Shown here: piece by piece, positions 25,960 to 41,606 of the stretch
Layout of the letters: each line of letters starts with the position of its first letter
How positions within the stretch are numbered: position 1 is the first letter of the stretch
Origin: a virus
Virus genome (UHGV): UHGV-2113617
DNA length: 64,000 bases
Direction: 5' to 3' (one strand)
Translations under genes and position numbers: made by a program
The notes under the pieces: generated by a model
What the model saw: only the letters and a program-made list of their open reading frames with translations
Database searches by the model: none
Told to the model about the DNA's origin: nothing

Positions 25960-26495
25960 TGCATTCCGATTACGAAAAACTGCGGACGAGTAATACCACC
26001 GATGCAACAATTACTATTGCAGCAGTGTTGTACAGTGTCAATATGGACGCTATAAATCTTATCCATATCAGGAGATTTAACAGGCTCATCGATTATATAC
26101 AAAATCCGCGAAAGCGATAAACCTCTGAACTTGCTTCCTTTATTACCGATAAAACTACGGACAGAATCGGTAAATAAACGAAAACGTATACCATCATTAG
26201 AATAACGCGAAAATTCCTTTTTAATGTTATTTGCAGAAATTTTAGCGTAAGCTGAAGTATTAGAAAGAACAATAACTGTTCCACCGTCATACAACCAATT
26301 AGCGGCAAAATTAGTTACTGCAGTTGATTTACCGGATTGACGTCCACCATCTAGTCGAAGTGTGCAATACTGCTTAAGTAAGTCTTCAAATGGCGGGATA
26401 TATTCGTTTTTACAAATTTCTTCTACTCTAGCATCAGAATGGTGTGTAAAAGCATTCATCAGGGATAGATAAGGACCAGTTAAAAATGTTCTCAT
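25956..26495 (-). CDS. small P-loop NTPase
   Basis: 179 aa from MRTF (GAGAGAATAAA RBS); Walker A GGRQSGKST, Walker B ILYIIDEP. Confidence 0.55.
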   Translation of the reverse strand: MRTFLTGPYLSLMNAFTHHSDARVEEICKNEYIPPFEDLLKQYCTLRLDGGRQSGKSTAVTNFAANWLYDGGTVIVLSNTSAYAKISANNIKKEFSRYSNDGIRFRLFTDSVRSFIGNKGSKFRGLSLSRILYIIDEPVKSPDMDKIYSVHIDTVQHCCNSNCCIGGITRPQFFVIGMQ

Positions 26496-26510
26496 TTTAT
26501 TCTCTCTAAA

Positions 26511-26579
26511 TTTGGGCCATTCCATGGCGCATGAATTGTCCATTTCTGTATTTACCCATTACCGCACTTGGGCTCGACC
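26511..26579 (-). repeat. 5' UTR element copy A (degenerate)
   Basis: about 75% identical to 27107-27176; TTTGGG(C/A)CA...GCATGAATTGTCC...ATTACCG. Confidence 0.6.
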
Positions 26580-26734
26580 TTATTACAGGTTGGCGGGAAT
26601 CCCTCACAGAATCATGAGGTCCAGCTTGTTCCCATGTTATTTGAATGTAAATATTTTTGCCTTAATACTTATACCAGTGTGGCTTCGTTAAAATTTTTCA
26701 TCGAGTCATTTTACCTCTCCAAGTAATTATGAAT

Positions 26735-26764
26735 ATACTATCACAATTTTAGGAGAAAGTAAAC
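26735..26764 (-). promoter_or_regulatory. T4-type early promoter
   Basis: GTTTAC, 18 bp, TAGTAT. Confidence 0.6.
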
Positions 26765-26766
26765 TG

Positions 26767-27069
26767 TTATTTACCTTTAATTACTTTAGCTGCTTCGATA
26801 GCCGCTTGCTGAAGGTCATCCATAGACATACCGAATTTAGAAGCAAAGTTATCAATTTTCTTTTCGACAGCATTCAAAGGCTTGGCCTGTTTACCTTCAT
26901 TAGCGCCAGGAAGAGCGAGAATACGTTCTTTGTCAATATAAAGGCTTACAAGTTTCTTACGGTCTTTATCGGACAAATCATGAAATGAATGGGCCTTTTT
27001 ATTTATAGCGGCTTCTAATTTACCTGCACTCACTCGCGCTTCAGTAATAAATTCTTGATATGTTTTCAT
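26767..27069 (-). CDS. ipII: internal head protein II
   Basis: 100 aa, N-terminal capsid-targeting sequence MKTYQEFITEA. Confidence 0.75.
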   Translation of the reverse strand: MKTYQEFITEARVSAGKLEAAINKKAHSFHDLSDKDRKKLVSLYIDKERILALPGANEGKQAKPLNAVEKKIDNFASKFGMSMDDLQQAAIEAAKVIKGK

Positions 27070-27106
27070 ATGTTTCCTTTAAATGTAAATAGTTTTATTC
27101 TTTAAG

Positions 27107-27176
27107 TTTGGGACAATTCGCACGCATGAATTGTCCGTTTCTATATTTATCTATTACCGGGTTCGAACTCGGCTTT
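27107..27176 (-). repeat. 5' UTR element copy B with perfect hairpin
   Basis: GGACAATTC-8 nt-GAATTGTCC inverted repeat (27111-27136) plus CCGGGTTCGAACTCGG palindrome. Confidence 0.6.
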
Positions 27177-27177
27177 A

Positions 27178-27756
27178 TTAAGAATTACCACGGGCTGCAT
27201 TAGCAACGGCGTAAGCGTACTGAACATTAGCGTCTTTAAACGTACCTTTAGAGGTATCTAGTTCTGCCTTAAAGCCGCCTTTAGTCATAACATCGGCAAA
27301 TTCTTTGCGGAAAGCCATTGCATCAAGGCTTCTCCATGACGATTTGTGCTTGGCGAATTCAAGACCAGCGTAGTTGACAGCCTTAGCTAATTTATTATCA
27401 ATAACCCATTTACCAGCTTTAGGCACAAACACCGGGCCTTTCTGTTTAGAGAATAGTTTTAAATTCCAGCGACGAAGTTCACCATCAGCTTTAACAAAAG
27501 CTGCGTCCAAGTTACTAGCAACAACATCTTGAATATGACCAAATTTAAGCCCATCAACTTCAATATTTAGATCGGTGCGCCAGCGAAGTCCTTCCCAAGC
27601 GAAAGCTTTAAAGTCGGAAGCTTTTGTAGCTAAGTATCGTTCAATAGGAGCTGTTTTAGGGTCAAAGCCGTTTCCTCGGTAAGTCCACTCATCTTTATTA
27701 ATGCCTTTGGCCTTTTCCACAGAAGCTTCAGCGATAAATTCTTTATACGTTTTCAT
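27178..27756 (-). CDS. ipIII: internal head protein III
   Basis: 192 aa, capsid-targeting start MKTYKEFIAEA. Confidence 0.75.
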   Translation of the reverse strand: MKTYKEFIAEASVEKAKGINKDEWTYRGNGFDPKTAPIERYLATKASDFKAFAWEGLRWRTDLNIEVDGLKFGHIQDVVASNLDAAFVKADGELRRWNLKLFSKQKGPVFVPKAGKWVIDNKLAKAVNYAGLEFAKHKSSWRSLDAMAFRKEFADVMTKGGFKAELDTSKGTFKDANVQYAYAVANAARGNS

Positions 27757-27793
27757 GTGTTTCCTTTAAATATTTTAATTAGTAACTGTGAAT

Positions 27794-27823
27794 ATACTAT
27801 CACAGTTCTAGGAGAAAGTAAAC
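27794..27823 (-). promoter_or_regulatory. T4-type early promoter
   Basis: GTTTAC, 18 bp, TAGTAT; near-identical to the 26735 copy. Confidence 0.6.
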
Positions 27824-27827
27824 AACT

Positions 27828-28358
<531 letters not shown>

Positions 28359-28814
28359 TTAAAAGAGGTTGTTCATTATTCGGTAAAGTGAAGGACCCAT
28401 CACATATTGCCACTGAGTACGAGGAATAAGAGCAAAAGCATCCATCTCTGGAATCATAACGCCATCTTTATTTTCAAAATAAGACTCGCAATGGCAATTT
28501 CTAAACATCTCATGCTCTACTGGAATCGTATAATAAAATAACTGTAAGTCTTTATTACTAGAATATTTAAATACACCTAGGTCTTCTAGAAGGTCTGGAT
28601 TATAATTGCTAAAGCCAGTCTCTTCTAAACATTCTCTTCGTGCTGCATCTAGTGCGCTTAAATCAGAATTTTCTACACGGCCCTTTGGAATATCCCAGCG
28701 ATGGGCCATCATTCCAGGCTTACGAGAACCGGTAACCCGACCCATGAATAAATCTTTATCTTCTGTCATAAAGATAATACCAGCTGATAATGTTTTCATT
28801 TTAATTTCCTGCAA
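28359..28814 (-). CDS. nudE: Nudix hydrolase
   Basis: 151 aa, Nudix box GRVENSDLSALDAARRECLEETGF. Confidence 0.8.
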   Translation of the reverse strand: MQEIKMKTLSAGIIFMTEDKDLFMGRVTGSRKPGMMAHRWDIPKGRVENSDLSALDAARRECLEETGFSNYNPDLLEDLGVFKYSSNKDLQLFYYTIPVEHEMFRNCHCESYFENKDGVMIPEMDAFALIPRTQWQYVMGPSLYRIMNNLF

Positions 28815-28875
28815 TCAATCACAAACTCTTTCATTGATTCATTTTCAATATAAGACATGTAGTTATTATATTCTT

Positions 28876-29157
28876 TTAACTGTATTTTGTAATCCTTTTT
28901 TCTTTGCCAATTATTTTAAAATTATCATAATGAAAATATAGTATAGTGCCAAAGAATGAAAATAATGAAATCGCTATAGTAAAACGAAGTTCACTCCAAA
29001 CCTCTGTTATAATTGCTGAACTATCGATGTTTAAAATAAAACAGTCAATCATTAGTCCAATAAGACTACCCGCAAGAGCTGCAAATACTGATACGGCAAG
29101 AATTAATAGCGCCTCAGGAAACGAATATTTGACTTTATTTAGTTTTGGCTTTTGCAT
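28876..29157 (-). CDS. small membrane protein
   Basis: 93 aa, two to three hydrophobic helices. Confidence 0.5.
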   Translation of the reverse strand: MQKPKLNKVKYSFPEALLILAVSVFAALAGSLIGLMIDCFILNIDSSAIITEVWSELRFTIAISLFSFFGTILYFHYDNFKIIGKEKRITKYS

Positions 29158-29552
29158 CGTGATTCCTTAACAAATTTCATAATTTCGTTAAATTCATACG
29201 CAGCAAGTTTAAGCTGATATTCCTTTTTAATCTTTTTACACTGTGCTTTCCAATCACGTACGCGTTTACGATAATGTCTTCCTTGATACCAGTATCCTAC
29301 CCAATTTACAGGTATTAATAAAAGCGGAATTATTAATGGAAGAATTAGCGTTGCTCCAAATATTACACCGGATTCAATATCAGTCATAACGTCTATAACC
29401 ATTCCAGCAATTAGCAGAATCACAAATGATACAGCTACCACAGGACCCATTAATACATCGGTAGAAATTATCTGGCGCTTTAGTTCATACTTCAAAGGTT
29501 TACTTGGAAGGTATAGTGATGGCTTTGACATATTCTCTGCATTCCTTAACAA
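29139..29552 (-). CDS. membrane protein
   Basis: 137 aa, two hydrophobic helices and basic C-terminus. Confidence 0.5.
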   Translation of the reverse strand: MLRNAENMSKPSLYLPSKPLKYELKRQIISTDVLMGPVVAVSFVILLIAGMVIDVMTDIESGVIFGATLILPLIIPLLLIPVNWVGYWYQGRHYRKRVRDWKAQCKKIKKEYQLKLAAYEFNEIMKFVKESRCKSQN

Positions 29553-30108
29553 ATTTTTCTAGTAATAAATCGCTTTCAAAATTAGGATTTTCTACGAATT
29601 TATCAAAAAGATCATCAACAATAGTAAAGATATTCTTTTTACTAAGAATACGCTTATTTTCATATTTTGTTTCAGAGTCAACTATAAGAGTAAAGAAATA
29701 TTTCTTTCCCTGAAATTTTACTGTAGTATCAATATAAAATAAATTTGACTTTTGTAAATTACGTCTAAAACACGCGTCACTTAAACTATAAATGCCAAGA
29801 TAATCATAATCGTCGTTTAAATAACAAACTGTCCATTCAGGAGAAATGAAATCAGTAAATTCAACATCAAAATCACATGTCAATGAATGAATTGATTCAA
29901 TACTGTTAATAAGTATTCCAGGACGTATTAAGGACTTTTTACCTCTATAAAATCTTCCAGAAAGACTTTCGTCAGTTTCATACGAAGACCCCCAATAGTA
30001 ATTACGCCCTTCTGCCATACGTTTAAGAGCATTTAGTAATTGGTCTGGAACATCAACATGTCTTTGGAACTCTTCAAACATTGAATTGAAATCATTTTGC
30101 ATTCTCAT
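29500..30108 (-). CDS. hypothetical protein
   Basis: 202-aa ORF. Confidence 0.6.
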   Translation of the reverse strand: MRMQNDFNSMFEEFQRHVDVPDQLLNALKRMAEGRNYYWGSSYETDESLSGRFYRGKKSLIRPGILINSIESIHSLTCDFDVEFTDFISPEWTVCYLNDDYDYLGIYSLSDACFRRNLQKSNLFYIDTTVKFQGKKYFFTLIVDSETKYENKRILSKKNIFTIVDDLFDKFVENPNFESDLLLEKFVKECREYVKAITIPSK

Positions 30109-30128
30109 TCCTATTTACTCCAGTAATA

Positions 30129-30142
30129 GGGGCCGAAGCCCC
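30129..30142 (-). terminator. hairpin (weak terminator or RNA stability element)
   Basis: GGGGC-TTCG-GCCCC; no strong U-tract. Confidence 0.4.
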
Positions 30143-30148
30143 TTATCA

Positions 30149-30742
30149 TTATTTCAGAGAATTAATGTATTCCTGAACATCGGCAGAGGTAGTTTCAACC
30201 CCGGAAATATTACCGTTAAAGGTTTCAACTCGAGCAAGAGTATCTTCAATATCAACCTTAGTTAGCGCTGCGATTTCAACTACATCATCAGCAGTACTAA
30301 TTCCAAGGGCATTTGCCGCACGAGTTTCACGGATATATTCCAATTTAACTGCAAGTTCTTGACGAGCATCATCTAACTCAACTACTTTCTTGGCGATTTC
30401 AATTCGCATTTCAGCATAACCATCAGCTTTAGTAGTCAACTGCTCAGCTGTTCGACGATATAGTAAACCGAGCTTAGCATGCATTGTTACATCTTGACCT
30501 TCGGAAAGAAGTTTGCGAATTTCACGCTCTTTTGATTCGGCTTGTCGATTCTTTTCGATAACAAGTTCACGAATACGTTTTTCTTCATTAATAGATTTAA
30601 CAGAAGCAGTTTTTAGGTCTTTAATTTTATCAAGAAGTTTTGCTGCTGCAGCAGTATACTGTTCTTCAACAGATAGATTTTTAGCCATAGCAGAACCAAG
30701 TTTAGTGCGAATAAACTCAACAATTTTCTTCAGTGTGTTCAT
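30149..30742 (-). CDS. coiled-coil protein (weak PspA/IM30-like feel)
   Basis: 197 aa, heptad-rich throughout; family assignment unverified. Confidence 0.55.
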
Positions 30743-30785
30743 AGTATTTCCTTAGGTTGATTAAAAATTAAAATCTGTGGAAGAA

Positions 30786-31316
30786 TTATATCATGCTATT
30801 TAAGAGATGTAAACTATTTTTAATTTTACAAATTCGTTCAGCTTCTTCAACAGCGGCGGCGATAATGCTTTTAGCTATAGGAGTACTAATACTAGTAGCT
30901 TTTACACTTAACACGATTTCTTTATCTTTACCAGGCCAACCCCACGATTTTTCACCGTGAGTGCCTTTAATTACAGCAGACACCTCAAGTGAGCATCCAT
31001 TATCATATGTTTTTACATTGACAACCCAAGGTTCACTTTTCTCAATCGGTTTCTCAATCGGTTTATCCCAGTAAATATTAAGAATACGTGGGACATCAAA
31101 TTTGGCAGGACAAATCTTAACTGTAAGACCTTCGCTTTCTAGCCAATTAATAAGAGGGCGTTCATACAGGCGACGATGTGGGCTTGGGATTCGACAAGCC
31201 TTATGTCCGTTGCTTGCGGCTTCACTAAGCTGTTCTAATACCTGCTTTTGCATTATTGATAAGATACCATCAAAAGATTTTTCGGAAGTTTCATTCAGTT
31301 CGGTATAAAGAGACAT
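30786..31316 (-). CDS. hypothetical protein
   Basis: 176-aa ORF. Confidence 0.6.
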   Translation of the reverse strand: MSLYTELNETSEKSFDGILSIMQKQVLEQLSEAASNGHKACRIPSPHRRLYERPLINWLESEGLTVKICPAKFDVPRILNIYWDKPIEKPIEKSEPWVVNVKTYDNGCSLEVSAVIKGTHGEKSWGWPGKDKEIVLSVKATSISTPIAKSIIAAAVEEAERICKIKNSLHLLNSMI

Positions 31317-31371
31317 AACAGTTTCCTCAAATTATAGGCTCATAATATCTCAATCATGAGCCTATGTAAAC

Positions 31372-31635
31372 TTATTTCATATTATTAAAATATTCTTCTG
31401 CGATTTCGTCGTTATCATGGTAAACTTTAGAAGACAGTTTAACATAACCTTCAGCAGTGAACATGTTAATCACAACCTTTACAGTATACCACTGACCATC
31501 TTCATTACCCATTACTGCGTAAGTTTCAAACATCGGATGATCAGGACCGATAACTTTAATATCATTCACTGTACGACCGAAATCTTCTGAAACGCATTTC
31601 ATAAAGAAGTTGAACAGTTCGCCGTAATTATCCAT
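31372..31635 (-). CDS. hypothetical protein
   Basis: 87 aa from MDNYGEL (GGAG RBS); longer ORF-track start lies inside the promoter. Confidence 0.55.
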   Translation of the reverse strand: MDNYGELFNFFMKCVSEDFGRTVNDIKVIGPDHPMFETYAVMGNEDGQWYTVKVVINMFTAEGYVKLSSKVYHDNDEIAEEYFNNMK

Positions 31636-31679
31636 TTCATTCTCCAAGTTGTTTTTCTGTATCAGTAGTTGATAGTTGT

Positions 31680-31709
31680 ATAGTACCATGGAAGAACGGG
31701 GATGTAAAC
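31680..31709 (-). promoter_or_regulatory. T4-type early promoter
   Basis: GTTTAC, 18 bp, TACTAT plus conserved leader. Confidence 0.6.
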
Positions 31710-31842
31710 CGTTTTGTGAAAAAATTTTTAAAAAGTTTTAGGGAATTCTAGGGCAGGGATGGGCAATTAAAGGATAGGATAATATATTATAAAGGGTATA
31801 AACTAAATGATGCCTAGAGAGGTCCAGAAAGGCCTAGATATC

Positions 31843-31869
31843 AAAAAGCCCCAACCTTTCGGTCGAGGC
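31843..31869 (-). terminator. rho-independent terminator (downstream copy of duplicated terminator)
   Basis: minus-strand GCCTCGACC-GAAA-GGTTGGGGC then TTTTT. Confidence 0.65.
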
Positions 31870-31877
31870 TAAGAATG

Positions 31878-32351
31878 TTATTTGATTTGTTTAGCAGACC
31901 AAATGCGGTCTTTGATGATTTTTTGGAGATCTTCAACATACTCTAGGTCATGAGCATGTGGATTATCTTTGAAACTATAGGCACGGGCTAATTTTTGGCC
32001 TTCGGTTTTAATTACTAAAAGCTCTTTAAGGATAGCTTCATATTTAGCGATAATTCCTTTAACAATATTTTTTTCTTGTGCAGCTTTAGGATCTGCTTTA
32101 GGAGCAGGTTTACCGGAAGGTTTTTCGAAAGCCGCACCAGTAGCAACCAGACTTTTCCAGGCGGTGGTAACATAGTTACCCACAAAGCCTTCAGCTCTCA
32201 TATCGTCGTAGAACTTGTACCGGGATTCGTCAGAAGCATCTTTATAAGAATATTTACCAGCTTTAATAGCAGCAGTTGCTACAGCGCGAACATCTGAAGC
32301 GGATGCTTCATTTAACACCACTTCATTTAAAAATTGAGCATATGATTTCAT
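31878..32351 (-). CDS. candidate internal (capsid-packaged) protein with CTS-like N-terminus
   Basis: 157 aa, MKSYAQFLNEV resembles the MKTY.EFI.EA capsid-targeting sequence; AGGAAATAAG RBS; late promoter 39 nt upstream. Confidence 0.6.
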   Translation of the reverse strand: MKSYAQFLNEVVLNEASASDVRAVATAAIKAGKYSYKDASDESRYKFYDDMRAEGFVGNYVTTAWKSLVATGAAFEKPSGKPAPKADPKAAQEKNIVKGIIAKYEAILKELLVIKTEGQKLARAYSFKDNPHAHDLEYVEDLQKIIKDRIWSAKQIK

Positions 32352-32390
32352 CTTATTTCCTGTTTTAATTCGTGATTTAATATACTACTA

Positions 32391-32398
32391 TATTTATA
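32391..32398 (-). promoter_or_regulatory. T4 late promoter
   Basis: minus-strand TATAAATA directly after the terminator. Confidence 0.65.
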
Positions 32399-32400
32399 CC

Positions 32401-32427
32401 AAAAAGCCCCAACCTTTCGGTCGGGGC
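32401..32427 (-). terminator. rho-independent terminator (upstream copy)
   Basis: minus-strand GCCCCGACC-GAAA-GGTTGGGGC then TTTTT; ends the tRNA/stable-RNA transcript. Confidence 0.7.
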
Positions 32428-32429
32428 TA

Positions 32430-32744
32430 AGCCTTGCGGCAACCTTGTCGGGGTTCCACCTGCTAAGGCAAGTGTTTGTACGAAACGCCGGGATTTGAAC
32501 CCGGTTATTGAGCAGTTGACGCTACTCAATATTTTTAAAAGGCCATATCTCGACCATATCCGAACGTTCCGTCAAAAACGCTACTCGGCTTACGGCAAAG
32601 ATATTTCCTCGAATCGATAATTTGGTGCGCCGTTTCTGCTGTGATGTAAGAGGGCATCAACAAATCATAAAGATTTATTAACACAATTCCTTACCCAGGG
32701 AACATCAGTCCGACGACTTACCGGTAGCGACCCGGTTTCTCATT
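32430..32744 (-). ncRNA. probable small stable RNAs (T4 species 1/2-like)
   Basis: no ORF; tRNA-like T-arm CCGGGTTCAAATCCCGG at 32488-32504; between tRNA-Arg and terminator; boundaries not determined. Confidence 0.35.
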
Positions 32745-32821
32745 TGGTCGAGGCAGAAGGATTCTAACCTTCAACCAACGGATTAGAAATCCGTTGCTCT
32801 ATACAATTGAGCTATGCCCCG
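32745..32821 (-). tRNA. tRNA-Arg (anticodon TCT)
   Basis: hand-folded cloverleaf: acceptor CGGGGCA/TGCCTCG, anticodon loop TTTCTAA, T-arm GAAGG-TTAGAAT-CCTTC, encoded CCA; ends +/-2 nt. Confidence 0.8.
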
Positions 32822-32824
32822 TAA

Positions 32825-33490
32825 TTAAAATTTCATTTTTCGACCTTTAAACCATCCTTCTGGAATTGGGTCAGTTTTCTTAATACGTTTAGAAACTTTT
32901 TCATCTAATGAATGAATCCACATCATACCAAATTGAGAATTCTTTTCACCTTGTTGGTGTTTATTTCTGGCGTGAGATTCTTTCATTTTATTAATAGTTT
33001 CAGGAGTATGGGTCTTACCCAAGAAAGATTTAGTATTTAAAAATTTCTCTCTATACTTAGGATTATCCCAAAGCTGTTTAAACCTTTCTGAACCCATTTT
33101 ACGATATTTTTCTTTAAGGTCTGGGTCGTTCTCAAATCTGGTTTTAAAAGCGGCAGCTCCTTTTAAGGAAGCTTCTTTCTTTTTATCCAAATATTCTTTA
33201 GTGTTTAAATGGTCCCAACCACCTTCACCACCTAATTTCAAATTATAAACATCAGGGCGCTTTAAAAACTCTTCAGTCACAATATTCTTTTCTGACTCAA
33301 ACATAGAGGTTTTATCGTCAAAGAACTCTAATATTTCTTTAGAAAAATTTTCTATACCATACTTGTCTTGGGCTCTTTTTAATAATTTACCAGAACCCAT
33401 ATATCCATCATCTAAATTTTCGGTAGAATGAGCGCCTATGTAGATTTTATTATTAATTTTATTTGTTATTTTATAAATGTAATGGAACAT
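32825..33490 (-). CDS. segB: GIY-YIG homing endonuclease
   Basis: 221 aa, MFHYIYKITNKINNKIYIGAH motif; embedded in tRNA cluster as in T4. Confidence 0.8.
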   Translation of the reverse strand: MFHYIYKITNKINNKIYIGAHSTENLDDGYMGSGKLLKRAQDKYGIENFSKEILEFFDDKTSMFESEKNIVTEEFLKRPDVYNLKLGGEGGWDHLNTKEYLDKKKEASLKGAAAFKTRFENDPDLKEKYRKMGSERFKQLWDNPKYREKFLNTKSFLGKTHTPETINKMKESHARNKHQQGEKNSQFGMMWIHSLDEKVSKRIKKTDPIPEGWFKGRKMKF

Positions 33491-33531
33491 AAATATCTCC
33501 TATTTCTAAGAGTATTTATGTTCTCAAAATA

Positions 33532-33603
33532 TGGCCCTGGGTGGAATTGAACCACCATCTGGCGATTATGAGTCGCTTGCTTGAACCTTCCAGCTACAGG
33601 GCC
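33532..33603 (-). tRNA. tRNA-Ile (anticodon CAT, presumably lysidine-modified)
   Basis: acceptor GGCCCTG/CAGGGCC, anticodon loop CTCATAA, T-arm GGTGG-TTCAATT-CCACC. Confidence 0.75.
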
Positions 33604-33609
33604 TTGATA

Positions 33610-33682
33610 TGCTGATTGACGGAATCGAACCGCCGACGTCCTCATTACAAGTGAGTTGCTCTACCTACTGAGCTAAATCAGC
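33610..33682 (-). tRNA. tRNA-Thr (anticodon TGT)
   Basis: acceptor GCTGATT/AATCAGC, anticodon loop CTTGTAA. Confidence 0.8.
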
Positions 33683-33689
33683 GAAATTA

Positions 33690-33776
33690 CGGAGGCGATA
33701 GGATTTGAACCTATGAGTCGCCGGAGCGACTGCCGGTTTTCAAGACCGGTGCATTAAACCACTCTGCCACGCCTCC
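33690..33776 (-). tRNA. tRNA-Ser (anticodon TGA)
   Basis: acceptor GGAGGCG/CGCCTCC, anticodon loop CTTGAAA, long variable arm. Confidence 0.8.
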
Positions 33777-33778
33777 AG

Positions 33779-33852
33779 TCTCCGCGGCAGGATTTGAACC
33801 TGCGACATTCTGCTCCCAAAGCAGACGCTCTACCAAACTGAGCTACACGGAG
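33779..33852 (-). tRNA. tRNA-Pro (anticodon TGG)
   Basis: acceptor CTCCGTG/CGCGGAG, anticodon loop TTTGGGA. Confidence 0.8.
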
Positions 33853-33864
33853 TAAATTAAATTT

Positions 33865-33936
<72 letters not shown>

Positions 33937-33942
33937 AAACTT

Positions 33943-34029
33943 TGGTACGAGAAGTGGGACTCGAACCCACAAGGAAATCATTCCGCAGCATTTTAAGTGC
34001 TGTGCCTTTACCAATTTGACCATTCTCGC
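33943..34029 (-). tRNA. tRNA-Leu (anticodon TAA)
   Basis: anticodon loop CTTAAAA, long variable arm, encoded CCA. Confidence 0.75.
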
Positions 34030-34030
34030 G

Positions 34031-34103
34031 CTGGGAATAAAGGACTTGAACCTTTGCATCTAGCAGTCAAAGTGCTATGCCTTACCAACTTGGCTAATTC
34101 CCA
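34031..34103 (-). tRNA. tRNA-Gln (anticodon TTG)
   Basis: acceptor TGGGAAT/ATTCCCA, anticodon loop CTTTGAC. Confidence 0.8.
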
Positions 34104-34200
34104 ATTATTAACAAAGGCTCTCAAGCAAGAACCCTTGATGATAGAGGGTATTAATCAGTGCGATATGAGTTAATAATAACAAATAATTCTTAAAGCATAT

Positions 34201-34488
34201 TTACCATTTATGATAATACATATTTACGATGCATTCAAGACCCAAAGGATTCTTGAAAATATCATATTCAAGAGGACCTTTTTCTGTTTCAATAAAGAAA
34301 TCAAAGTTAACTGTGTTAAATTTACGGTCTTCCTTTACTAATTTAACCTGAGAAGATGAACGGTCAATGTAAACCTTTTCGACTTCAAAACACGTTAAAA
34401 TGCCATAATCATCAATCAAGGCTTTAGCTGCTTCTTGATCATATTTATATCCATTTTCAATGGACGATACTTTCGCATAAAGAATCAT
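34201..34488 (-). CDS. hypothetical protein
   Basis: 95-aa ORF. Confidence 0.55.
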   Translation of the reverse strand: MILYAKVSSIENGYKYDQEAAKALIDDYGILTCFEVEKVYIDRSSSQVKLVKEDRKFNTVNFDFFIETEKGPLEYDIFKNPLGLECIVNMYYHKW

Positions 34489-34490
34489 TA

Positions 34491-34673
34491 TTAACCTTTA
34501 GAAATTTTATCCATAGCAATAGCGATTAAACCAATTAAAAATGCTACTACAAGTGAAAAAACGTTTTCTGCTGTAGTTAATAATCCGCATATAAATCCAA
34601 CAAACATTGAAAAACTAAAAGCAGAAGCAGAAATTGCAATAGCAACATTTCGAATTAATTCACAGCGTTTCAT
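34491..34673 (-). CDS. small membrane protein
   Basis: 60 aa, two hydrophobic helices, GAGGAGAATAAA RBS. Confidence 0.55.
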   Translation of the reverse strand: MKRCELIRNVAIAISASAFSFSMFVGFICGLLTTAENVFSLVVAFLIGLIAIAMDKISKG

Positions 34674-34702
34674 TTTATTCTCCTCAGTAGTTGATAGGGT
34701 AA

Positions 34703-34732
34703 TAGTATCACTACCCTATCTAAAAGTAAACT
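34703..34732 (-). promoter_or_regulatory. T4-type early promoter
   Basis: GTTTAC, 18 bp, TACTAT. Confidence 0.6.
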
Positions 34733-34965
34733 TATTTTTTACGAAAAATTGATTTATTTTCTGCTGCCCATTTTTCAATAACTGCAGCAGGACCAGTAAC
34801 AACAATTTTATCGCCGTAATCTTCTGCGGCGAGTTGACCGAAATTATCTAATGCATCACGAAGAACTCCATGAGGCATTTCACCCATTTTATCTTTCTTA
34901 CCAGTGTAAATAAACTCAACTTTTACATCAGCCGCTTCATTGATAAATTCTTTGAAAGTTTTCAT
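34732..34965 (-). CDS. ipI-locus internal-protein-like protein
   Basis: 77 aa from MKTFKEFINEA (capsid-targeting-like start); adjacent to 57B as T4 ipI is. Confidence 0.6.
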   Translation of the reverse strand: MKTFKEFINEAADVKVEFIYTGKKDKMGEMPHGVLRDALDNFGQLAAEDYGDKIVVTGPAAVIEKWAAENKSIFRKK

Positions 34966-34999
34966 TTTGATTTCCATTTGGTTTTGTTTTGATAGGGTA

Positions 35000-35029
35000 A
35001 TAGTATCACAACTAAAACTCCATGTAAAC
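35000..35029 (-). promoter_or_regulatory. T4-type early promoter
   Basis: GTTTAC, 18 bp, TACTAT. Confidence 0.6.
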
Positions 35030-35041
35030 AACTTTGTGAAA

Positions 35042-35727
<686 letters not shown>

Positions 35728-35737
35728 TATAGTACCT

Positions 35738-36463
35738 TTAGTGTATTTTTAGTGTATTTTTAATTTTAGAAAAAAGTTCTTCAAGAGAACCATCGTTTGT
35801 AATTACTAAATCACCATCACGAATTGGCAATCCAGCTTCTGTAATATGTGTATCATTGGATTTTTGACCAGGACGAACTACATGAATTACTGTAGCACCC
35901 ATCGCCCTAGCCGCATCCATTTCATGATCTTGACGAGTATCAGGAACGATATAATAATCATAACCTGAGTTAAATTTATCAAGATAATCTAAAGCAAATA
36001 ATTTTACCCAATACATGCGGTCGAAGTTATTAACAATCAAATCCGTACCTAGGGCTTGCATCAGACGACGGACTGACCATTGATCTTCAATATTATTTAT
36101 AACGTCAATAATCTTGTTACATGCTACGGAATCAACTGATTCTTGTCCTTCGTCCTCAAAAACACACACCCCCTTAATTGGGCTTTTACCGTTAAGATAG
36201 CAAAATGCTTGTTCCATAATCGTGATTACTTCTGATTTAGTCAGATTTAAATTAGTCTCACGATCATAGTCAATTCCTTCAAACTCTTTACGAGTTAAGC
36301 AAGGATAGTCGGTGTTTGCTGCAAATACACCCCATGCATAAGCCAATGCATCCTTAATAGGACCAGCAAGTTGGTATTTAACTGCAGAATAATTACTCAT
36401 GATAAAATCAGCAGTAGTATCTTTTCCACTACGCTTTACACCGCTTAAAAAGATTAGTTTCAT
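35738..36463 (-). CDS. 1: deoxynucleoside monophosphate kinase
   Basis: 241 aa from MKLIFLSGVKRSGKDT (P-loop). Confidence 0.9.
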   Translation of the reverse strand: MKLIFLSGVKRSGKDTTADFIMSNYSAVKYQLAGPIKDALAYAWGVFAANTDYPCLTRKEFEGIDYDRETNLNLTKSEVITIMEQAFCYLNGKSPIKGVCVFEDEGQESVDSVACNKIIDVINNIEDQWSVRRLMQALGTDLIVNNFDRMYWVKLFALDYLDKFNSGYDYYIVPDTRQDHEMDAARAMGATVIHVVRPGQKSNDTHITEAGLPIRDGDLVITNDGSLEELFSKIKNTLKIH

Positions 36464-36512
36464 GTGTTTCTCCTCAAATTTAATTAAGATTATAACACAC
36501 AAAACTGAAGCA

Positions 36513-37043
36513 TTAAACTTCTGCTATAATTTTACCATCTTTTTCTACTTGAAAATAGGTGTAAGGAATCGTTGCTGTACATACTAAAGCCGGGTCTGAA
36601 TCTTCCGTGTAGCTAAATTCTACTTCAGATAGGTCAGAAACCCAAGGCTTATAAAAATTTATTGACATCACGATTTCAGTTTTACTATTATCTAAAATGT
36701 AAAGCGTAATGTATTCAGGACCTGTTTTTTGGGCAGTATTTTCGCCTGTAAGATAGTTACTAGTTCCTAGCATCCATTCATACATTCCTATCCACGACTT
36801 AAGCTCTTCGTCAACTATAAATCTCACAATGAGTGGGTCGTACTCAAATGTAACACCTGGACGTTGTGCTCGACCAAGTCCAAACGGCCCAGTCACGGTA
36901 TCAGTAACAGGTATTCTAATTCCTGGAATAGGAACTGACTGAGCATTTAAAGTAAAAGCAGATGTAGTATTACTATGTGGTATTGATACTACAAAGTTAG
37001 TTGTATTTGCTTGGTTAAAAATTTGTTGTAGTGCTTGCGACAT
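36513..37043 (-). CDS. 3: tail completion / sheath stabilizer gp3
   Basis: 176 aa from MSQALQQIF, GAGGAA RBS; order 1-3-2-4 as in T4. Confidence 0.8.
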   Translation of the reverse strand: MSQALQQIFNQANTTNFVVSIPHSNTTSAFTLNAQSVPIPGIRIPVTDTVTGPFGLGRAQRPGVTFEYDPLIVRFIVDEELKSWIGMYEWMLGTSNYLTGENTAQKTGPEYITLYILDNSKTEIVMSINFYKPWVSDLSEVEFSYTEDSDPALVCTATIPYTYFQVEKDGKIIAEV

Positions 37044-37149
37044 ATATTCCTCATAATGCTTTATAAATGTTGGTGGTATAATGGGTCTAAGTCCCTTCCA
37101 TTCAATTCCAATTAGAACAAACAATAGAAAAGAATGGAAGATAATAGAA

Positions 37150-37974
37150 TTAGATATTTGACCAGACTTTGTTTGCAGAGAAACGTTTTCCTTTTGAAAC
37201 GAACTGCTGAAGTGGCATTAACACAACGTTCGCCCAGTCTTTCGGGGCGATTTCAACAAGGCTACCCATAATATTACCAGGTATATATGCCTTAATCATT
37301 TGGTCTGCACCTCTAAATCCTTTCACTTGACTCCAATCAATTTTTAATTTCGTTTTATTAGTAATAGTAGGTGTATTTGCATATTGCTTTAAAAGCTCTT
37401 CTAGAAATTGCTGACGAGCTTTAGGTGGAATATAGTGCAAGTTCAATCCGTACATTAAATTGTGTTTACCTAAACCGAGGTAAATTATCAAAGGAAATTT
37501 ATCCCAATAAGGAAGAGTTTCTTTGTGTTTAGCATCATAAGCAAAAGCATATATTCGTCCCGGCTGCGGGCGAACAACTTTATGTCCTTTTACCTGCTTA
37601 ATAGTTTCAGCAAACCACTTTCTGGTTTTATTATTAATTGCTGCACCTTCATTACGAATTTTATCACGCAACGTTTGCCTGAATGAATTTATCATAAGCA
37701 GTTGTCTTTCTTGCTTATTGAGTTTATTCATTGGTTTTGATTCAAGCTTTTGAATCTTTTCAGCCGTTTTAATTCCTGAAGCATATTTTGACATTGCCGA
37801 AGTAAACGTAGAGTATTTGATTCCTCTTTCTTCAGCAAATTGCTTTCCTGTCATTCCTTTTGCTTTGGCCTTTTTGTATTCAAGACCTATCTGAATCCAT
37901 TTCTTTTCGTTTAATGATTGCTTAACCTTTGGAACTTGGGGAGTGCTTTCATTAATTATTTGAAAAATAGCCAT
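37150..37974 (-). CDS. 2: DNA end protector gp2
   Basis: 274 aa. Confidence 0.8.
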
Positions 37975-38426
37975 TATGCCCCCTTAAAGCCAAGAGCTCG
38001 TAATCCATCTTCTGTTAAAATTCTAAATTTTATTCCACGCTTTTCAGCTAAAGCTTGAGCTGCTTTCCATTTGTCAGTATTAACGGAATATGTATAAATT
38101 TCATTCATAAATCTTTTCTTCGCTGCAGTTGTTAGATGTGCTGGTTTAACTGGTGGTTGTGTTTCTTTTTTAGGCTTTATTTCAATAAAAAATTCTTGTC
38201 CAGAAGAATCTTTCATCCAAATATCCATGAAGTATCTACGTTTTTTCCCTTCTGCATTACAAAAATAAGGAATTACTGCTGTTTCACTACCCCATGCAAT
38301 AATTTCTGGATTTTTATCTAACCATTCAAAAAAGAATTTTTCCCAATTTGATCTATACGTAATTTTTTTAGGGTCACCTCTATATTTTGATATATTTTTA
38401 GGAACCCATTTTCCAGAATATGCCAT
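37974..38426 (-). CDS. 4: head completion protein gp4
   Basis: 150 aa. Confidence 0.8.
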
Positions 38427-38437
38427 TGGATTCTCCT

Positions 38438-38445
38438 TATAAATA
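38438..38445 (+). promoter_or_regulatory. T4 late promoter for gene 53
   Basis: TATAAATA 28 nt before ATG. Confidence 0.7.
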
Positions 38446-38452
38446 GATAATA

Positions 38453-38460
38453 TATTTATA
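38453..38460 (-). promoter_or_regulatory. divergent T4 late promoter for genes 4-2-3
   Basis: minus-strand TATAAATA. Confidence 0.65.
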
Positions 38461-38473
38461 AACAGGAGGGCCC

Positions 38474-39064
38474 ATGCTCTTTACATTTTTTGATCCGATT
38501 GAATATGCGGCCAAAACGGTGAATAAAAACGCGCCGACTATTCCTATGACAGATATTTTTAGAAACTATAAAGACTATTTCAAACGTGCTCTTGCGGGAT
38601 ATCGCTTACGTACTTATTATATTAAAGGTTCACCACGCCCGGAAGAATTAGCAAATGCTATATATGGAAATCCACAGTTGTATTGGGTTTTATTGATGTG
38701 TAATGATAATTATGATCCGTATTATGGATGGATTACTTCGCAAGAAGCTGCTTATCAAGCATCTATACAAAAATACAAAAATGTAGGTGGAGACCAAATA
38801 GTATATCACGTGAATGAGAATGGTGAAAAATTTTATAATTTAATATCATACGATGATAATCCATATGTTTGGTATGATAAAGGCGATAAAGCTAGAAAAT
38901 ATCCTCAATACGAAGGAGCACTTGCTGCGGTCGATACGTATGAAGCTGCTGTTCTTGAAAATGAAAAACTTCGTCAAATAAAAATAATAGCAAAATCAGA
39001 CATCAATTCATTTATGAACGACCTTATACGTATAATGGAGAAATCTTATGGAAATGATAAGTAA
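38474..39064 (+). CDS. 53: baseplate wedge protein gp53
   Basis: 196 aa, GGAGGG RBS. Confidence 0.85.
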   Translation: MLFTFFDPIEYAAKTVNKNAPTIPMTDIFRNYKDYFKRALAGYRLRTYYIKGSPRPEELANAIYGNPQLYWVLLMCNDNYDPYYGWITSQEAAYQASIQKYKNVGGDQIVYHVNENGEKFYNLISYDDNPYVWYDKGDKARKYPQYEGALAAVDTYEAAVLENEKLRQIKIIAKSDINSFMNDLIRIMEKSYGNDK

Positions 39065-40775
39065 TAACCTCAACTGGTTTGTTGGCGTTGTTGAAGATAG
39101 AATGGACCCATTAAAATTAGGTCGTGTTCGTGTTCGTGTGGTTGGTCTGCATCCGCCTCAAAGAGCACAAGGCGATGTAATGGGTATTCCAACCGATAAA
39201 TTGCCATGGATGTCAGTTATTCAACCGATAACTTCTGCAGCAATGTCTGGAATTGGAGGTTCTGTTACAGGGCCAGTAGAAGGAACTAGAGTATATGGTC
39301 ATTTTTTAGACAAATGGAAAACTAACGGAATTGTCCTTGGCACTTATGGCGGAATAGTTCGCGAAAAACCTAATAGACTTGAAGGATTTTCTGACCCAAC
39401 TGGACAGTATCCTAGACGTCTAGGAAATGATACTAACGTATTAAACCAAGGCGGAGAAGTAGGATATGATTCGTCTTCTAATATTATCCAAGATAGCAAT
39501 CTAGACACTGCAATAAATCCCGATGATAGACCGCTATCAGAAATTCCAACTGATGATAATCCAAATATGTCAATGGCTGAAATGCTTCGCCGTGATGAAG
39601 GATTAAGACTAAAAGTTTATTGGGATACAGAAGGATATCCGACAATTGGTATTGGTCATCTTATCATGAAGCAGCCAGTTCGTGATATGGCCCAAATTAA
39701 TAAAGTTTTATCAAAACAAGTTGGTCGTGAAATTACCGGAAATCCAGGTTCTATTACAATGGAAGAAGCGGTAACTTTATTTGAACGTGATTTAGCTGAT
39801 ATGCAACGTGACATTAAATCACATTCTAAAGTTGGCCCAGTTTGGAAAGCAGTTAATCGTTCTCGTCAAATGGCATTAGAAAATATGGCATTTCAGATGG
39901 GTGTTGGCGGTGTAGCTAAATTTAACACAATGTTAACTGCTATGTTAGCCGGAGATTGGGAAAAAGCATATAAAGCCGGTCGTGATTCATTGTGGTATCA
40001 ACAAACAAAAGGCCGTGCATCCCGTGTTACCATGATTATTCTTACAGGGAATTTGGAATCATACGGTATTGAAGTTAAAACACCAGCTAGGTCTTTGTCA
40101 GCAATGGCTGCTACCGTAGCAAAGTCTTCTGATCCAGCTGACCCTCCTATTCCGAATGATTCGAGAATTTTATTCAAAGAACCTGTTTCTTCATATAAAG
40201 GTGAATATCCGTATGTTCACACAATGGAAACTGAAAGCGGTCATATTCAGGAATTTGATGATACCCCTGGACAAGAACGATACAGATTAGTTCATCCGAC
40301 TGGAACGTATGAGGAAGTATCACCGTCAGGAAGAAGAACAAGAAAAACTGTTGATAATTTGTATGATATAACAAATGCTGATGGTAATTTTTTGGTAGCC
40401 GGTGATAAAAAGACTAACGTCGGTGGATCAGAAATTTATTACAACATGGATAATCGTCTTCACCAAATAGATGGAAGCAACACAATATTTGTCCGTGGCG
40501 ATGAAACTAAGACAGTTGAAGGTAATGGAACTATCCTAGTTAAAGGTAATGTTACTATTGTAGTTGAAGGTAATGCTGACATTACAGTTAAAGGGGATGC
40601 TACCACTTTGGTTGAAGGAAATCAGACTAATACAGTAAATGGAAATCTTTCTTGGAAAGTTGCTGGGACAGTTGATTGGGACGTTGGTGGTGATTGGACA
40701 GAAAAAATGGCATCTATGAGTTCTATTTCATCTGGTCAATACACAATTGATGGATCGAGGATTGACATTGGCTAA
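39048..40775 (+). CDS. 5: baseplate hub / tail lysozyme gp5
   Basis: 575 aa; lysozyme segment MAEMLRRDEGLRLKVYWDTEGYPTIGIGH; C-terminal VxG beta-helix repeats. Confidence 0.95.
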   Translation: MEMISNNLNWFVGVVEDRMDPLKLGRVRVRVVGLHPPQRAQGDVMGIPTDKLPWMSVIQPITSAAMSGIGGSVTGPVEGTRVYGHFLDKWKTNGIVLGTYGGIVREKPNRLEGFSDPTGQYPRRLGNDTNVLNQGGEVGYDSSSNIIQDSNLDTAINPDDRPLSEIPTDDNPNMSMAEMLRRDEGLRLKVYWDTEGYPTIGIGHLIMKQPVRDMAQINKVLSKQVGREITGNPGSITMEEAVTLFERDLADMQRDIKSHSKVGPVWKAVNRSRQMALENMAFQMGVGGVAKFNTMLTAMLAGDWEKAYKAGRDSLWYQQTKGRASRVTMIILTGNLESYGIEVKTPARSLSAMAATVAKSSDPADPPIPNDSRILFKEPVSSYKGEYPYVHTMETESGHIQEFDDTPGQERYRLVHPTGTYEEVSPSGRRTRKTVDNLYDITNADGNFLVAGDKKTNVGGSEIYYNMDNRLHQIDGSNTIFVRGDETKTVEGNGTILVKGNVTIVVEGNADITVKGDATTLVEGNQTNTVNGNLSWKVAGTVDWDVGGDWTEKMASMSSISSGQYTIDGSRIDIG

Positions 40776-40809
40776 TATACTTCCAATGAGCGCTGATTTA
40801 GGAGAATCC

Positions 40810-41304
40810 ATGGAAGGTTCTTCTATCGACGTCACCTTTACTGCTCAATTAGAAACAGGTGAAACGTTAGTATCTATAAATATAACTAGTTACGAAGAAA
40901 CTCCTGGGGTTTTAGTAGAAGAAAATCGCTTATACGGAACATATGAATCTGTGTTTGGATTTGGAAATGACGCGTTGAAATATCGTTTAGGCGATGAATT
41001 TAAAACTGCTGCTTCATGGGAAGAACTTCCTACTGATTCTGATACTCAGTTGTATTTATGGAAAGCTCCTCAAAACCTCCAGAAGACATTCACTTACGAA
41101 GTAACATTAATATATGACTACCAAGAACAAAGTGAATCTGGAGGTTCTGGCAGTAATTCTAGGTCATCTTCTGATACTACTGAACCGACAGATCCTCCTG
41201 CTCCAGTAAGAAAAACTCTCGTTAAAAATTATACTAAAACTATAGTTGGAAATTGGAGTCGTTGGGCTAATAAATTAAGAAGCTATGTGTATGAGAGGTC
41301 ATAG
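40810..41304 (+). CDS. 5.1: gp5.1-like protein
   Basis: 164 aa from MEGSS (AGGAGAA RBS). Confidence 0.65.
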   Translation: MEGSSIDVTFTAQLETGETLVSINITSYEETPGVLVEENRLYGTYESVFGFGNDALKYRLGDEFKTAASWEELPTDSDTQLYLWKAPQNLQKTFTYEVTLIYDYQEQSESGGSGSNSRSSSDTTEPTDPPAPVRKTLVKNYTKTIVGNWSRWANKLRSYVYERS

Positions 41305-41598
41305 ATGTCAGGATTAAGTTATGATAAGTGTGTTACTGCCGGCCATGAAGCATGGCCTCCAACAGTTGTGAATGCTACACAAAGTAAAGTATTCACTGGA
41401 GGAATTGCTGTTCTCATAGCAGGTGATCCAATTACAGAACATACAGAAATTAAAAAGCCATATGAAACACATGGCGGAGTGACACAACCTAGAACTTCTA
41501 AGGTATATGTCACTGGAAAGAAAGCGGTTCAAATGGCTGATCCAATATCATGCGGTGATACTGTGGCTCAGGCATCATCTAAAGTATTCATTAAATAG
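41305..41598 (+). CDS. 5.4: PAAR-like spike tip protein gp5.4
   Basis: 97 aa. Confidence 0.75.
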
Positions 41599-41606
41599 GA
41601 TTTAAA

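Follow-up and report, generated by a model that had tools for sequence, protein, structure and literature searches.

An open reading frame (ORF) of 157 amino acids (aa) on the minus strand of the virus genome UHGV-2113617 (31878..32351, stop codon included; start MKSYAQFLNEVVLNEASASD) probably encodes a T4-type internal protein (IP) that is directed to the phage head by a capsid-targeting sequence (CTS), packaged there, and expressed from a self-contained late transcription unit. Positions refer throughout to the analysed stretch of 64,000 nucleotides, which we call the window. The ORF had been singled out in an earlier note on this DNA made from the sequence alone, and it indeed stands as described there; its product belongs to the family PHROG 2280 and is predicted to be the precursor of a packaged IP. 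The gene lies between rnaC and the homologue of e.8, away from the described IP loci, and probably marks a third IP site with a previously unrecognised IP family.

The case for packaging begins with the N-terminus of the protein. Amber-suppressor scanning of the T4 protein IPIII has shown that targeting depends on residues 4 and 7, and processing on residues 8 and 10 (PMC9026906), the prohead protease gp21 cuts after the Glu of an L/I-x-E motif, IP propeptides being 10-19 residues long (PMC9026906), and the 10-residue CTS MKTYQEFIAE is enough to load foreign proteins (PMC8442874). The candidate has residues of the expected kind at all four mapped positions, i.e. Y4 and F7 for targeting and L8 and E10 for cleavage. 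They lie in a CTS-like propeptide of 15 codons (32307..32351, minus strand), MKSYAQFLNE/VVLNE/A, where the slashes mark two predicted gp21 sites, L8-N9-E10 and L13-N14-E15, cut after E10 and E15, respectively; the prohead-protease site after LNE that the earlier note had proposed thus coincides with an L/I-x-E motif at residues 8-10. The pattern MK[STA][YF]..F[ILVM].E occurs in only four ORFs of the 64 kb, namely the candidate, ipII, ipIII and the Ip6-type gene. When all 592 Met-initiated ORFs were scored with a position-specific matrix derived from canonical leaders (mean -16, standard deviation 7), the candidate ranked 5th, approximately 3.5 standard deviations above the mean.

The leader also proves to be the most tenacious feature of the family. 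Y4 and F7 are invariant among the close relatives, Y or F at position 4 and F at position 7 are found in the distant homologues, and the leader motif is kept in four genera while the body of the protein falls to approximately 24-54% identity. Members of the family start with MKTYNEFLNE, MKSYAEFLTE/Q, MKTYNEFLMTE/A, MLKFNEFLAE/G, MLEYSEFLKE, MKFKEFLAE/A or MISFNEF...LITE/S, and the first of these is identical at 8/10 positions to the leader MKTYNEFITE of IpII from phage phiR1-RT. Judged by these sequences, the leaders of the candidate family grade into the canonical leader, with an identity of up to 8/10. The short variants further show that in the window's leader the cleavage site has been duplicated in tandem; a leader of comparable length, 19 residues ending in ITE/A, is known from T4 IPI. 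Another protein of 187 aa, encoded by a second cassette next to the candidate homologue in some phages (see below), starts with MKTYAEFLTEA, and according to BLASTP the leader is all that it has in common with the candidate. A side observation concerns position 2, where gp154 and gp153 of Yersinia phage fHe-Yen9-01 (L003:1922-3037) both have Leu for Lys (MLQYNEFLKE and MLEYSEFLKE), while IpII of the Tegunavirus phiR1-RT keeps MKTYNEFITE; the shared Leu2 may reflect gene conversion between the two neighbours or a tolerance of substitutions at this position.

The gene is framed by a direct repeat of 36 nt, the two copies of which are identical at 34/36 positions and lie 558 nt apart (start to start). 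Both copies form, on the minus strand, a hairpin with a 10-bp GC-rich stem and a GAAA loop followed by a U-run. The upstream copy (32396..32431, minus strand; stem 32428..32405) is an intrinsic terminator, closes the transcription unit of the tRNAs, rnaD and rnaC, and is the counterpart of the single copy of T4; its folding energy is -20.3 kcal/mol (z = -4.1), a value reached by 0/200 shuffled sequences. The downstream copy (31838..31873, minus strand; stem 31870..31847) terminates the cassette itself and folds with -17.3 kcal/mol (z = -4.8; again 0/200 shuffles as good). The earlier note had described two near-identical terminator copies of 33 bp; that they are terminators is supported by the hairpins and U-runs, but their length has to be corrected to 36 nt. 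Directly adjoining the U-run of the upstream terminator is the late promoter octamer TATAAATA (32398..32391, minus strand), 40 nt before the ATG, and a ribosome-binding site, AGGAAA, can be read from the sequence at 32361..32356 (minus strand), 4 nt before the ATG. A look for an early promoter within 32352-32431 gave none.

The octamer alone is weak evidence of a promoter, as 17 copies of TATAAATA occur in the window and 10.6 +/- 3.1 are expected by chance; its weight comes from the conservation of its position in other genera. In other representatives of Tequatrovirus the promoter keeps its offset of 62 from the rnaC anchor (loci L002, L009, L012, L013 and L014). The Klebsiella phage KpnM6E1 (Jiaodavirus) has a different hairpin, GCCCCGTCTTCGGACGGGGC, followed by TTTTTAG, TATAAATA and the homologue gp123, and in fHe-Yen9-01 (Tegunavirus) the hairpin GGAGACTTCGGTCTCC and TATAAATA precede the gp154-gp153 unit, which ends with another terminator. 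Representatives of Mosigvirus have AATAAATA at the same site. That the order of terminator, late promoter and leader-bearing ORF is kept while the sequence of the terminator varies is our main reason for accepting the promoter as functional. It may be added that a perfect copy of TATAAATA is also present inside the ipII coding sequence (27000-27007, minus strand, approximately codons 21-24), where it could drive late transcription of genes downstream or be one of the approximately 10 copies per window expected by chance.

Comparison of the locus across T-even genomes, which the earlier note had called for, reveals presence and absence of the gene between the repeats. The T4 spacer between rnaC and e.8 is 284 nt long; its positions 1-236 align to 31635-31872 of the window and positions 202-284 to 32396-32478, so that 35 nt of the spacer align twice and correspond to the duplicated terminator. 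T4, T2 and T6 have one terminator, the same flanks and no gene at the site, and the candidate is therefore a true insertion/deletion cassette. The suspicion that it might turn out to be a conserved e.x gene of T4 can thus be dismissed, the gene being absent from T4, and the idea of a cassette inserted by recombination at a terminator agrees well with the duplicated terminator and the empty sites. Homologous recombination of one 36-nt terminator copy with the other would convert either allele into its counterpart, so that the cassette is gained or lost.

A near-full-length homologue of the candidate is present in at least 468 phage records (60-99% amino-acid identity) and is annotated as “hypothetical protein” or an equivalent in every record inspected; altogether, the gene is found in more than 500 phage records. 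Phage SA21RB has a two-cassette allele, in which the second ORF, encoding the aforementioned 187-aa protein, follows directly downstream of the candidate homologue and has its own, different terminator (L002:3709-4272); this second gene is absent from the window and occurs in 165 phage records, all of which annotate it as hypothetical. The cassette is polymorphic in Jiaodavirus as well, where only 22 of the 143 records reach a coverage of 80% or more of the cassette query and most match the flanks alone, as does ValerieMcCarty03. Roth77 is another flank-only match from this genus, in which the annotation places an anti-CBASS Acb1 gene under the matching stretch.

A virion proteome bears on the packaging of a close relative. 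Yersinia phage fD1 (HE956711) has the cassette, and the product of its g140, 157 aa long and starting with the same leader, is 85% identical to the candidate. Gp140 was found in purified virions by LC-MS/MS and passed the strict threshold for particle-associated proteins (PMC8309999 Table S3). The same is true for the other two leader-bearing proteins of fD1, Gp129 and Gp146, both with canonical leaders, whereas detection failed for the products of the neighbouring genes e.8 (g139) and g138 (same table). These data show that the fD1 homologue is translated and co-purifies with particles. The virion proteome of phiR1-RT was considered too and set aside as irrelevant, since the annotation of this phage shows nothing of comparable size among the ORFs of the locus.

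As to the body of the protein, BLAST comparison with ipII, ipIII, Ip6 and T4 IPI gave no significant similarity beyond the leader, in keeping with the earlier statement that the body resembles neither ipII nor ipIII. The full-length profile of PHROG 2280 matches with E = 3.1e-54, residues 1-157 of the candidate aligning with positions 1-172 of the 178 in the profile, and the same profile is matched end to end by the 187-aa protein, by gp153 and gp154 of fHe-Yen9-01 and by gp123 of KpnM6E1 (E 1e-54 to 1e-58). The view that the two cassette proteins are unrelated families can be upheld only in part: both are members of PHROG 2280, and their C-terminal hairpins are linked by hhalign at 87% probability. 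PHROG 2280 is a database family with no assigned function or category, for which the IP reading would be the first annotation. When 1.84 billion representatives were searched exhaustively with HMMER, only 11 proteins were retrieved, all strong scorers coming from T4-like phages, and judged by these sequence matches the family is confined to T4-like phages. A weak match of the PPR-like repeat kind (P0018, E = 5e-4) was discarded as helical-repeat noise. Three metagenomic sequences are peculiar: P0010 joins the last 31 residues of the candidate family to an unrelated N-terminus, P0011 combines the N-domain of the family with a different C-terminal sequence, and in P0015 the N-domain is fused to a neighbouring Klebsiella-phage ORF. 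Such chimeras suggest frequent deletions and fusions around the locus or, alternatively, assembly or frameshift artefacts.

An AF2 model (mean pLDDT 72.8) predicts a two-domain architecture. The leader (residues 1-15) is modelled as disordered, with a pLDDT of 43, and is followed by a compact three-helix N-domain (residues 18-71; 32139..32300, minus strand; pLDDT 82-92) with the signature AGKYSYKD.SDESR..F..DM.AEGF, which is conserved more widely than any other part of the family and is found in Klebsiella, Yersinia and metagenomic homologues. A Lys/Pro/Ala-rich linker, GAAFEKPSGKPAPKAD (residues 72-87; 32091..32138, minus strand), is predicted to be flexible, with no secondary structure and a pLDDT of approximately 52, and leads to a C-terminal module modelled as a long helical hairpin (residues 88-155; 31887..32090, minus strand). 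In the Klebsiella and Yersinia relatives, another C-terminus takes the place of this module. The predicted mature form of 142-147 aa is basic (pI 9.2-9.3, 20 Lys), like IPII and IPIII.

Several observations weigh against a packaged IP. The likeness of the leader to those of ipII and ipIII, from which the earlier note started, is real insofar as the four mapped positions are kept, but it is less close than was implied: 5/10 residues are identical to each of the IP leaders of the window, and the position-specific score amounts to 8.8 bits, compared with 34-38 bits for the three known IPs. The late promoter placed at 32391-32398 stands as an octamer at a conserved position, but the accompanying argument, that a packaged protein should have such a promoter, carries little weight, because an early-type promoter/stem-loop precedes the known IP genes of the window. 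The flanks of the candidate, a duplicated terminator and a late promoter, likewise differ from the ~70-bp early-promoter/stem-loop element of the IP genes. Fold and profile searches, which had been suggested as a source of functional clues, were uninformative: Pfam returned no match to the candidate, NCBIfam only noise far below the cut-offs, and the best hit of a profile search against the PDB had E = 0.6. In one related locus (L010, IMGVR_UViG_2706795408_000001) the same terminator and TATAAATA stand before another ORF of 184 aa (MKLLKYLSWILLVPLDF..., ~60-650 nt downstream of the rnaC anchor), the product of which is by appearance of a membrane type and has no CTS-like leader. The site alone therefore does not imply packaging, and the rnaC-e.8 site is not reserved for IPs but is a slot for late cassettes in general. 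Finally, the fD1 preparation was unspecific, with 113-137 of the 277 phage proteins (about 40-49%) detected, including DenV, NudE and lysozyme, along with 672 host proteins (PMC8309999). The detection of Gp140 is thus supportive but not decisive, and it raises the odds only modestly.

The divergent, low-scoring leader, the unspecific fD1 preparation and the membrane protein in another cassette of the site would all fit a late cytoplasmic protein that is not packaged at all, the resemblance of its leader being a remnant of recombination with an IP gene or due to chance, and the mass-spectrometric signal being carry-over from the lysate. We nevertheless regard this as rather improbable, given that Y/F4, F7, L/V8 and L/I-x-E are kept over four genera despite strong divergence of the body and that the same leader is present on an otherwise unrelated neighbouring cassette (that of the 187-aa protein, an argument qualified by the membership of both proteins in PHROG 2280). 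In addition, all three leader-bearing proteins of fD1 exceeded the strict threshold, with the products of the adjacent e.8 and g138 undetected. A different possibility accepts packaging and processing and departs only in function: the protein might act within the head, in charge neutralisation, condensation or assembly of the prohead core, instead of being a dedicated anti-defence effector. Its probability is consequently not additive with that of a packaged IP as such. In favour of such a role, the predicted mature protein has a basic pI of 9.3, 20 Lys, a linker rich in Lys, Pro and Ala and a hairpin of long helices, lysines of T4 IPs touch DNA phosphates (PMC3012670), head assembly is disturbed by the loss of IPIII (PMC9026906), and the gene occurs in most sequenced Tequatrovirus genomes, which would be unusual for a narrow-target inhibitor. 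On the other hand, T4, T2 and T6 form normal heads without the gene, its presence/absence polymorphism and domain swapping resemble an arms race, and all three T4 IPs are inhibitors of GmrSD (PMC12373910), so that we consider a role confined to the head unlikely, if less so than the absence of packaging. The idea that the ORF is no gene and the terminator duplication a non-coding rearrangement scar, for which only the missing functional annotation could be invoked, has already been refuted by the conservation of the full-length ORF in the at least 468 records mentioned above and by the peptides of the fD1 homologue; the ORF also has its own ribosome-binding site and a confidently modelled N-domain.

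If the candidate is indeed a packaged IP, its life history might be as follows. Transcription of the tRNAs and rnaC would be halted by the upstream terminator, and late in infection RNA polymerase programmed by gp55 would initiate at TATAAATA and stop at the downstream terminator. Residues 1-10 of the 157-aa precursor would bind the gp22 scaffolding core, so that the protein would be built into the prohead, where gp21 would cleave it after E10 and/or E15 in the L-N-E motifs. The basic product of 142-147 aa would remain with the DNA in the head and be ejected with it into the next host, where, by analogy, it might neutralise a host defence nuclease before phage genes are expressed. Since T4 Ip1, Ip2 and Ip3 each inhibit one variant of the type IV restriction system GmrSD (PMC12373910), neutralisation of a defence nuclease is the most likely task after injection, an expectation based on analogy only. 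An anti-defence effector is a possibility that we put at somewhat below even. Also tentatively, the rnaC-e.8 site can be imagined as a third IP hot spot that swaps late-promoter cassettes, the PHROG 2280 proteins being injected inhibitors of defences with no known phage counter-measure, such as GmrSD variants unaffected by Ip1-Ip10 or a defence other than type IV.

How does the candidate compare with known systems? According to papers citing the work, Repoila et al. reportedly recognised in 1994 that IP genes are shuffled cassettes with a conserved leader, and the series IPI, IPII, IPIII and Ip4-Ip10 of T-even phages is treated in the work of the same authors, of Mullaney & Black (1996) and of Silas et al. 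(2025). Other packaged and injected anti-restriction proteins are the Dar proteins of phage P1 and Alt of T4, which enter the head while it is being assembled and reach the host together with the DNA. To our knowledge, they have no sequence or structural relation to the candidate, and loading in P1 differs. T4 Alt lacks a CTS leader (PMC9026906). The candidate shares with the T4 IPs the leader M-K-(T/S)-(Y/F)-x-x-F-(I/L)-x-E with its mapped residues and the L/I-x-E site of gp21; it is likewise small and non-essential, with a basic mature form and a body unrelated to the other IPs, and its gene is likewise a cassette in a variable region flanked by a repeated regulatory sequence. Unlike them, it resides at the third site, rnaC-e.8, the described IP loci being 57B-trna.4 and denV-e (a matter of historical description, not a functional requirement). 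Its leader is divergent (S3, A5, Q6, L8), 15 residues long and equipped with a duplicated cleavage site, its body has two domains, and the gene is missing from T4, T2 and T6. A further parallel is provided by the promoter-early stem-loop (PeSL) cassettes of the hyperplastic regions of T4-type genomes (Arbiol et al. 2010, PMC2839356). There, too, a single, transcriptionally insulated accessory ORF is placed between repeated stem-loop elements, and recombination explains its presence or absence in close relatives (PMC2839356); in contrast to PeSL, the repeat around the candidate consists of nothing but a terminator, and transcription would start from the late TATAAATA, not from an early promoter of the sigma-70 type.

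Recent work counts “two Ip loci” and reports tests of ip1-10 (Silas et al. 2025, PMC12373910). While surveying the literature for RB32ORF133c, a third IP locus and the leader sequences, we found no paper that treats the rnaC-e.8 site or the candidate family as internal proteins, and the supplementary text of Silas et al. on the tested ip1-10 genes contained no match to the candidate. Genome annotations that name Ip5, Ip6 and Ip7 leave the candidate gene hypothetical, which, together with that supplementary text, suggests that the family stands apart from Ip4-Ip13. What is new here is hence the third locus, the element made of a late promoter and a terminator, and the absence from the three classical T-even phages.

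The setting of the cassette is that of a mosaic Tequatrovirus (T4-like) genome. When the 20-kb stretch 26000-46000 was compared with a phage collection, the best matches had 93-96% coverage and 95-97% identity, and no record of the collection was close along its whole length. The order on the minus strand is as in T4, running from gene 1 through 57A, 57B, the Ip6-type gene, trna.x, the tRNAs, rnaD, rnaC and the candidate to e.8 and other e.x genes. Upstream of the cassette lie the small stable RNAs rnaC (32479-32617, minus strand) and rnaD (32624-32743, minus strand), identified by blastn against T4 features with 97% and 93% identity, respectively. The cluster of eight tRNAs is split by a GIY-YIG homing endonuclease gene of the segB type (32825-33490, minus strand), as in T4; the window has a tRNA-Met(CAT) where the T4 annotation has tRNA-Ile. 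Downstream of the cassette, the e.8 homologue (31372..31635, minus strand) is preceded by an early-type promoter, TTTACA-17-TACTAT (31708..31680, minus strand). This gene is listed with 105 aa (31372-31689, minus strand) from an ATG at 31689 that falls inside the early promoter region; the start equivalent to that of T4, MDNYGELF, is at 31635 and gives 87 aa.

The canonical IP genes of the window are ipII (26767-27069) and ipIII (27178-27756). At the ipI locus, the ORF list begins the gene at a TTG (34732-35031, minus strand; 99 aa), the leader MKTFKEFINEA being read from an internal ATG at 34965. The resulting gene (34732-34965, minus strand) encodes 77 aa, is of the Ip6 type and belongs to PHROG 8111, and the window therefore has Ip6, not T4 IPI, at this place.

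The category to which we assign the candidate is unsurprising, but the candidate itself is concrete, widespread, unannotated and directly testable, and the field has become newly active. Its divergent 15-residue leader is a possible alternative packaging tag for T4 engineering. Five more GmrSD systems are active on T-even phages, and none of the ten ip genes tested inhibited them (PMC12373910); a widespread, leader-bearing, late-expressed and probably packaged family provides ready candidates against these orphan defences. PHROG 2280 would move from “unknown” to a testable class, and the shuffling of cassettes in T4-type genomes would be extended from early-promoter elements to an element that combines a terminator with a late promoter.

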